Of a stretch of 64,000 nt of DNA, positions 60,973 to 62,513 are shown piece after piece. The DNA comes from Escherichia phage EcM-vB1, in the sequence record PV574017.1; one strand, 5' to 3'. The translations under genes and the position numbers were made by a program. How positions within the stretch are numbered: position 1 is the stretch's first letter; each line of letters opens with the position of its first letter. Under the pieces are notes generated by a model. The model saw nothing but the letters and a program-made list of their open reading frames with translations. It did no database searches and was not told where the DNA came from.

Positions 60973-61350
60973 TTAGTAACTCTGATTCCATCTGCTTACG
61001 TTTGCCTCATACAGAGAAGCACTTCCGTAGCTAACGTCATGCTTAGAGCGACCACGATGTGTAACAGAGCACGCTGAATAGCGCATTGCATCCATTAAGT
61101 CATCATGTTCTTTAATAATCTTACCAACCTTACGGTGATATCTAGCTTTCTCTTCGAATAGCTTAGCATTAGCGGCTGTGTTAAAGATTTTAAAGCGTCC
61201 ACTCATCATTCTTTCTCGGATATCTGTGATTCCCGGTTCTACAAAGAAGTTCTTTTTACCATCCATTCCAATTTTGTTGTAGAAGGTCTCACTCTGTACG
61301 TTAACTCCTGCATTCTTATAGAATTGAGCAACAGATGAGCCACTACCTTC
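60973..61350 (-). CDS. terminase large subunit, C-terminal (nuclease) part of a frame-disrupted gene
   Basis: GSGSSVAQFYKNAGVNV...HDDLMDAMRY; frame open up to 61350. Confidence 0.8.
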   Translation of the reverse strand, partial: EGSGSSVAQFYKNAGVNVQSETFYNKIGMDGKKNFFVEPGITDIRERMMSGRFKIFNTAANAKLFEEKARYHRKVGKIIKEHDDLMDAMRYSACSVTHRGRSKHDVSYGSASLYEANVSRWNQSY

Positions 61351-62513
61351 TCAATATTGTCCGCATCGTGCGGCAGGATGACAGGAATCCACTGACCACG
61401 ACCATTAATAGCTGGAGCATGATACACTGGAGTAAAGCCACCTTCTTTATATGAGTCGTAAACATAGATAGTATCCGTGTTTGCGTCGTAAGCTGTCCAA
61501 ACAGCAGCAGTTGGGTGATCAATACCAATATCAATTGCACAGACACGTTTCCACGTATCAGGAATTTCGAATGGTTCACATTTAATTGTGTCATCCGATA
61601 CATCATAAATCAAACCACTTCCTAACAATGGCATACCTTTCGAACGCATCTCTAACTGCCACGCTGGAATACCTTCAGTCATATCTTTTATATCTTGGTC
61701 AGTGATGTGTCCACCTAGGTCTGCATGAGCATCCCACCAAGAAGCATTCTGGAAATATAGAGAACCTGTGTTCTCATCCCCTTCACCTTTCATAAATTTA
61801 TCTACCAGTTCAGTTAAACCGTTCTCTGGTGTAGCTGTAATTGTAACTAGACCTTTAGTTGTGAGTGTACGTGTGACGCACTGTGCGAATATAGCCATAG
61901 ACTCGTATGGATCTTCTTCGTCTAACCAAATGTAGTCAACTGTTGCACCCATCAATGTGTGTTCACCCTGTTGGGTTGAACGGAATTCTAATGTACTTAA
62001 ACCGTCAAACTCTCCTCTTTCGTTTTGATGTTTGATTTGTACGATTTGAAGTTTGTTACCATCTCGTTCTATCGTGTCAATGACGATAGCATCACGAGGA
62101 ATGACACCTGTCCCCAATAAGTTTGTATCCTTTCCGATAGGTGTACCAAACAATTCCTTTTGCAATACTTTCCTTGTGGAATCCCCTGTAATACCAACTG
62201 CCCATGCTAAGATAGGTCTTTTAAATTTATATCCTGTCCACCAAGTTGGGTAGCGACCTGTGACATGACAAGCAAACTCGTATGCCTCGCTATAAGATTT
62301 ACCAACACGGTTCGCTGCACACAAGAATCTAAAGCGATGCTTCAATCCTGCTGCATAAAATTTCTTTTGGAAGTCATACGCCTTGAAAGACAAAATCTTA
62401 TTATACTTCCTCCATTGGTCACGCTCTTTCAACATATTCAATAGTGCTTTCTTTTCCTCTACACTAAGATTGTTACCAGTTAGAGCTTCATAAATTTGTT
62501 TATCTAATGACAT
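61239..62513 (-). CDS. terminase large subunit, N-terminal (ATPase) part
   Basis: Walker A-like region; AIDIGIDHPTAAV starts the nuclease domain; reads out of frame after about 61350. Confidence 0.8.
   Translation of the reverse strand: MSLDKQIYEALTGNNLSVEEKKALLNMLKERDQWRKYNKILSFKAYDFQKKFYAAGLKHRFRFLCAANRVGKSYSEAYEFACHVTGRYPTWWTGYKFKRPILAWAVGITGDSTRKVLQKELFGTPIGKDTNLLGTGVIPRDAIVIDTIERDGNKLQIVQIKHQNERGEFDGLSTLEFRSTQQGEHTLMGATVDYIWLDEEDPYESMAIFAQCVTRTLTTKGLVTITATPENGLTELVDKFMKGEGDENTGSLYFQNASWWDAHADLGGHITDQDIKDMTEGIPAWQLEMRSKGMPLLGSGLIYDVSDDTIKCEPFEIPDTWKRVCAIDIGIDHPTAAVWTAYDANTDTIYVYDSYKEGGFTPVYHAPAINGRGQWIPVILPHDADNIEKVVAHLLLNSIRMQELTYRVRPSTTKLEWMVKRTSL

Follow-up and report, generated by a model that had tools for sequence, protein, structure and literature searches.

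Whether the large terminase (TerL) gene of Escherichia phage EcM-vB1 is broken in the phage itself or only in its sequence record is the question raised by this locus. The 64,000-nt stretch of record PV574017.1 that was analysed (hereafter the window) carries the gene in two frames, and the original prediction, made from the sequence alone, had left two options, a sequence error or a defective phage. Both options still stand, and the evidence weighs heavily towards an error, given the intact genes of the relatives, the lack of decay after the break and the presence of other dropouts in the same record.

The terminase locus and its frame break

TerL lies on the minus strand within a packaging and head module whose organization is as follows (positions are those of the window).

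62583..63056, minus strand: 157-aa ORF, intact, upstream of TerL; 100% identity to MN03 gp012
61347..62513, minus strand: TerL codons 1-389 (M1 to K389), frame A; ATPase domain and first part of the nuclease
61348..61349, no strand assigned: site of the missing base; plus strand TT versus TTT in relatives, by which Lys389 AAA plus GGT becomes AAG-GT
61239..61346, minus strand: out-of-frame end of the frame A ORF, with 35 missense codons (VVAHLLL...KRTSL) before TAG
60973..61347, minus strand: TerL codons 390-513 (G390 to Y513) and TAA, in the -1 frame; remainder of the RNase H-like nuclease domain
60947..60967, minus strand: hairpin of an intrinsic terminator, GGGGGAGG-TTTGT-CCTCCC with a T tract after it, found in a terminator scan
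58668..60911, minus strand: portal protein gene, 747 aa, intact; PF23899 SU10_portal, E=3.3e-170

The order 157-aa ORF, TerL, terminator and portal is the same in phiEco32, SU10 and MN03. The portal gene, which adjoins TerL downstream, is 99.9% identical to the MN03 portal, and the hairpin sits immediately 3′ of the TerL stop, at a place equivalent to that of the terminator annotated in SU10. The 157-aa ORF occupies the expected place of a small terminase; it is hypothetical in the annotation of most relatives and a 'putative terminase small subunit' in one of them, vB_EcoP_YF01, and a Pfam search with it gave no match.

Frame A corresponds to the ORF 61239..62513 on the minus strand (424 aa), which reads ...ILPHDADNIEK and then continues through 35 out-of-frame residues (VVAHLLLNSIRMQ...KRTSL) to a TAG at 61241-61239. 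Frame B, in the -1 register, is open from the GAA at 61350 and reads E-GSGSSVAQFYKNAGVNV...KEHDDLMDAMRY...NQSY*, containing HDDLMDAMRY, with its stop at 60975-60973. Frame A is valid up to the Lys codon at 61349-61347, and frame B takes over one base back, from 61347. The predicted one-base frame change, with ...PHDADNIE followed by the frame one lower from 61350, is thus borne out in coordinates, frames and peptides on the minus strand, and so is the placing of the junction at GAGAAGG, which is CCTTCTC at 61346-61352 on the plus strand.

The identification of the gene as a large terminase, with an ATPase and an RNase H-like nuclease, finds support in two Pfam families and in the TerL proteins of the relatives. 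The ATPase domain is detected as PF03237 (Terminase_6N, described as a T4-type terminase ATPase) at aa 66-255, with E=4.8e-15, and it contains both a Walker A (AANRVGKS, aa 66-73) and a Walker B motif (YIWLDEE, aa 194-200), as found in packaging ATPases. The first nuclease part, also in frame A, includes AIDIGIDHP (aa 326-334) and LPHDADN (aa 380-386), while the part in frame B bears the conserved KIIKEHDDLMDAMRY motif, with EHDDLMDAMRY at aa 469-479. Positions 2-97 of Terminase_6C (PF17289) are matched in frame A with 21.2 bits, below the cutoff of 22.6, and positions 96-153 in frame B with E=1.6e-7. The two pieces abut exactly, which indicates that a single domain has been cut in two by the frame change. 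As written, the window does not encode a continuous nuclease domain in one polypeptide, and the domain becomes continuous once one base is restored; the intact TerL of a 99.8%-identical relative gives one continuous PF17289 match, from 2 to 153 of 155, with 53.2 bits. Likewise, a tblastn search of the window with MN03 TerL recovered aa 1-389 at 99.5% and aa 389-513 at 99.2% identity. The 35-codon out-of-frame tail has no homologous match in the P22 alignment or in the MN03 tblastn; this tail (61239..61346) overlaps the true TerL frame and is not real coding sequence.

Relatives of the phage and distribution of the lesion

The window belongs to the Kuravirus group (phiEco32/SU10-like) and shares 99.5-99.9% identity with the GenBank phages EcP-vB and EcK-vB, two sewage phages from Egypt whose records (PV591328 and PV591327, respectively) are also the nearest ones over 25-kb stretches (99.4-99.9%). 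The TerL region matched 97 phage records, nearly all of them Escherichia/Shigella Kuravirus (phiEco32, SU10, MN03 and others), with an identity of 97.7-99.8% among the 30 matches listed and of at least 80% over all 97. The window is distinct from EcP-vB and EcK-vB by about 190 SNPs and by a Dam gene that both of them lack, and is therefore not simply the same DNA read again. A literature search on EcK-vB and EcP-vB, in which their sequencing platform was sought, found no papers.

Some features of the two sister records are worth describing in their own right. Both PV591327 and PV591328 are annotated on one strand only, with 26 features in one and 97 in the other, and in the 97-feature record the structural-gene strand is devoid of any annotation; they look like low-quality submissions. 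In addition, about 170 extra bases (PV591328 71636-71807) separate the TerL stop/terminator from the portal gene in EcP-vB, as against about 5 at this place in the window (60967-60972) and in other relatives. This excess may have come from a duplication during assembly or from an insertion.

From start to stop, TerL measures 1541 nt in the window and is a single CDS of 1542 nt (513 aa) in six relatives. Alignment against intact large terminases, as the original prediction had advised, was carried out with these six 1542-nt genes and displays exactly one gap column, located between window positions 61350 and 61349. The relatives have GAGAAAGG at the junction (GAG-AAA-GGT), where the window has GAGAAGG (GAG-AAG-GT) and phiEco32 has GAG-AAG-GGT; in a longer context, the relatives read ...AATATTGAGAAAGGTAGTGG..., phiEco32 reads GAGAAGGG and the window reads ...GAGAAGGTAGTGG... 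The lesion consists of the loss of one A from the AAA codon of Lys389, that is, within a homopolymer run, and the same missing base is apparent in local alignments with EcP-vB, EcK-vB, MN03 and SU10.

The deletion allele is confined to this record among the collections searched. A 121-nt query spanning the junction matched 86 phage records, none of them 100% identical, and all 60 that were listed span 122 nt. The allele was not found in viral (IMG/VR), metagenome or genome contig collections either, the lone metagenome match to the junction being 34 nt long and carrying the intact allele, and an exact-protein look-up of the 424-aa truncated product returned nothing on record. No independent isolate or assembly was found to share the lesion.

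Coding constraint and nuclease function downstream of the break

Insertion of one A restores the 513-aa ORF. In the repaired window, the downstream 124 codons contain no stop and show 0 codon differences from EcK-vB or MN03; comparison with phiEco32, SGF2, LAMP and SU10 gives 3-11 synonymous changes and 0-1 non-synonymous ones, LAMP being the case with 11 versus 1. Neither further lesions nor relaxed constraint were detected in this segment, a pattern that is the signature of purifying selection acting on TerL right up to sampling. Decay as a pseudogene was rejected, since the downstream codons are either unchanged or synonymously different. An intron or an intein was also rejected, because exactly one base separates the window from its relatives.

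The segment beyond the break corresponds to a functionally important part of the protein. Residues 297-481 of the repaired product align to the nuclease domain of the P22 large terminase (PDB 4DKW) with E = 2.9e-31, and the break sits in the conserved EKG motif, with conserved motifs on both sides. A search of solved structures, at E values up to 10, retrieved the P22 nuclease domain as the only terminase homologue, the other matches being noise. In the related Sf6 gp2 nuclease, the metal-binding triad is formed by D244, D296 and D444, and K428 and N441 also lie near the C-terminus (PMC4678813). If the catalytic residues are mapped by homology to Sf6, the downstream fragment containing KIIKEHDDLMDAMRY would carry the last residue of the triad, and a protein ending at residue 389 should lack nuclease activity and be unable to cut concatemers. 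Without concatemer cutting, a clonal phage with the genome of the window should not propagate, so that the predicted loss of the nuclease is a poor fit to a phage that was propagated and sequenced.

Other frame breaks in the record and in its sister records

The whole window was compared with EcP-vB, EcK-vB and the RefSeq genome MN03, an indel being considered private when it differs from all three. Nine private indels were found (window allele versus the other three).

158: deletion, T4 versus T5
971: deletion, G4 versus G5
1583: deletion, G3 versus G4
3070: deletion, one C missing, outside any repeat
12751: deletion, (TC)3 versus (TC)4
13148: deletion, T4 versus T5
26704: deletion, T3 versus T4
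33947: deletion, A2 versus A3
61349: deletion at the TerL site, T2 versus T3 on the plus strand

All nine are deletions (sign test, 0.004). Seven of them fall in homopolymer runs of three bases or more and another one in a TC repeat; such runs account for 14.8% of the bases, and the chance of finding seven or more of the nine there is 4e-5. The record contains many similar indels with a directional bias. At the protein level, tblastn revealed that 8 of the 53 conserved MN03 proteins are frame-split in the window, namely TerL, tail fibre 2, HNH, a 130-aa protein, a gamma-glutamyl cyclotransferase (GGCT), a 398-aa protein, an aminotransferase and a 323-aa protein. A split also occurs in tail fibre 1, at 53681, so both tail fibres are broken. 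Some ten breaks of this kind, the one in TerL among them, are present in the window, where at least eight other conserved genes are split.

Comparison with the MN03 proteins located ten further breaks, at 158, 1583, 4891, 10208, 11323, 12751, 31100, 33947, 51392 and 53681. Most of them are one base short in G3-4, T4, A5 or C3 runs, and one corresponds to a unit of a TC repeat; the genes affected are both tail fibres, the aminotransferase, GGCT, the HNH endonuclease and several genes for hypothetical proteins. Only the window has the breaks at 158, 1583, 12751 and 33947; the other six are shared with EcP-vB and/or EcK-vB. Among the latter, those at 51392, 31100, 11323 and 10208, which were checked against MN03 only, occur in each of the three Egyptian-type records and may represent systematic errors or else genuine differences of the lineage.

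One of these sites has given rise to an artificial gene. The 206-aa ORF at 33643-34263 on the plus strand is an artificial product in which the HNH endonuclease, 133 aa long in MN03, is joined to the next gene, of 84 aa, as a result of the AA-versus-AAA dropout at 33947 together with a one-base difference at 34000 relative to EcP-vB and EcK-vB. A Pfam search with this ORF as written gave no match.

The sister records have their own split genes, which amount to 12 of 53 in EcK-vB (PV591327) and 7 of 53 in EcP-vB (PV591328), and the private sets differ. In EcK-vB they include the scaffold, two tail or ejection proteins, a dNMP kinase and ThyX, and in EcP-vB ThyX again, along with an ejection protein and a tail protein of 1005 aa. 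Both sister records have an unbroken TerL. The occurrence of different private breaks in near-identical records fits with independent errors in a batch of low-accuracy assemblies; a separate scatter of dropouts in the essential genes of three almost identical genomes would not be expected of viable phages.

Origin of the frame break

Taken together, these observations make it very probable that the split of TerL is a base-calling or assembly artefact. In the proposed scenario, the real phage would possess an intact TerL, encoded by a single 1542-nt ORF whose 513-aa product would be a P22-gp2-like large terminase with an N-terminal packaging ATPase and a C-terminal RNase H-like nuclease. The AAA codon of Lys389 would have lost one A through an error in base calling or in the consensus, and this loss would be one among many under-calls of short homopolymers scattered through the record. 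Accepting an artefact, the frame change is not a biological feature, and the gene is a typical Kuravirus TerL. We infer a technical rather than a mutational cause. Homopolymer runs are natural hotspots of polymerase slippage, and their context alone cannot separate an error from a mutation; as a counterpoint to the artefact, homopolymer errors of long reads typically affect runs longer than A3.

It is unlikely, although the lesion is present in the sequence as given and homopolymer slippage is a common source of real mutations, that the deletion is genuine and that the record represents a defective genome, or a defective part of the sequenced population large enough to dictate the consensus. 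Lysates of high multiplicity can maintain defective genomes, and a TerL truncated after residue 389, devoid of the C-terminal part of the nuclease, would spread only through complementation by co-infecting wild-type phage. However, such a deletion would have arisen in a gene that has no second lesion and unrelaxed downstream constraint, its allele is unique against more than 60 relatives and absent from other collections, and it would have to coexist with at least eight other gene-breaking indels, those in both tail fibres included. Moreover, the sister records bear their own, different sets of breaks, and the fact that nine out of nine private indels are deletions points to a technical bias. 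Very unlikely is a variant in which the real deletion is carried by a propagating stock, with TerL supplied either by low-level -1 slippage of tRNA-Lys at GAG-AAG-G or in trans by a co-infecting wild type. If true, this phage would be a natural terminase mutant, either leaky or complemented; none of the results points in that direction.

The sequence at the junction could also be read as a recoding signal, whereby a -1 ribosomal frameshift at GAG-AAG-G, or transcriptional slippage as a variant, would join both frames. A G re-read as the first base of GGT after AAG would indeed yield the wild-type peptide ...NIEK-GSGS..., and tRNA-Lys is shift-prone in E. coli; yet the recovery of the wild-type peptide by a -1 slip is a trivial consequence of AAA becoming AAG-G. 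The site does not conform to an X-XXY-YYZ heptamer, as a frame B TGA two codons upstream leaves only G-AGA-AGG-T available, and the 103 nt from 61352 to 61250 on the minus strand fold with -20.1 kcal/mol (z = -0.70), with 45 of 200 shuffled sequences as good. In addition, every annotated relative has a single 1542-nt CDS, transcriptional slippage would need a run much longer than A2, and an allele seen once offers no opportunity for selection to shape a signal, all of which renders recoding extremely unlikely. The likelihood of a natural split terminase, in which the 424-aa protein and a separately translated C-terminal fragment would reassemble, is close to negligible. Frame B does contain a 97-aa ORF with an ATG at 61266, but this ORF would omit residues 390-416 of the domain, the break falls within a single compact RNase H-like fold (positions 96/97 of the 155 of PF17289), and the annotated relatives are all single-ORF.

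A base-calling or assembly artefact being the preferred reading, it has practical consequences. Automated annotation of the record will produce a truncated 'terminase', a spurious small ORF and about ten other split genes, which would mislead comparative, host-range and therapeutic-safety analyses of this Kuravirus. Accordingly, the record and its two GenBank sisters need polishing ahead of annotation.

Additional features of the genome

The Dam gene encodes a DNA N6-adenine methyltransferase of 170 aa (32942-33454, plus strand; PF05869 Dam, E=1.4e-48) and is situated between an exonuclease gene and a small ORF. It is also absent from MN03. Of 92 related phage records, only two (DE5 and EK5) contain it at full length. 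The gene resembles a mobile accessory cassette. Relative to MN03, the window also has two patches of mosaic replacement, at 43630-44660 and 53055-53681, where a 344-aa 'membrane protein' and the centre of tail fibre 1 show 61% and 66% identity to their MN03 counterparts, respectively, with the structural module elsewhere at 97-100%. Small indels clustered at 44195-44602 and 23961-24029 reflect this mosaic type of divergence, not errors. Finally, four extra bases at 34595-34612 distinguish the window from EcK-vB and MN03, and EcP-vB agrees with the window at this site. These bases sit in an inverted repeat (aaagccctc...gagggcttt) between convergent gene blocks, which probably represents a bidirectional terminator whose hairpin is extended in its loop or stem.

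Comparison with known systems

Programmed -1 frameshifts are known in phage genes, for example in the lambda G/GT tail assembly chaperone. Genes of this type likewise present two overlapping frames, the downstream one in the -1 register, and they have a conserved slippery heptamer, kept across relatives, and two functional products. TerL of the window differs from them in having neither the slippery site nor the structure nor the conservation. The P22 gp2 nuclease (4DKW) shares with the repaired protein the motifs D(I/F)G..HP, PHD, EKG.G and DD(L/V)(M/L)DA(M/T)RY, with about 35-40% identity as estimated by eye from the alignment, and it is a relative at the sequence level only. The closest correspondence is with the TerL genes of Kuravirus phages (phiEco32 gp7, ABY52808; SU10 gp05, AIF71758; MN03 gp013, YP_010674071; EcK-vB, XTK89954), which represent the same gene at the same position. 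These four share 98.4-99.8% nucleotide identity with the window (at least 97.7% among the records listed); unlike them, the gene in the window is 1 nt shorter, and is thereby divided into pieces of 424 aa and 124 codons.
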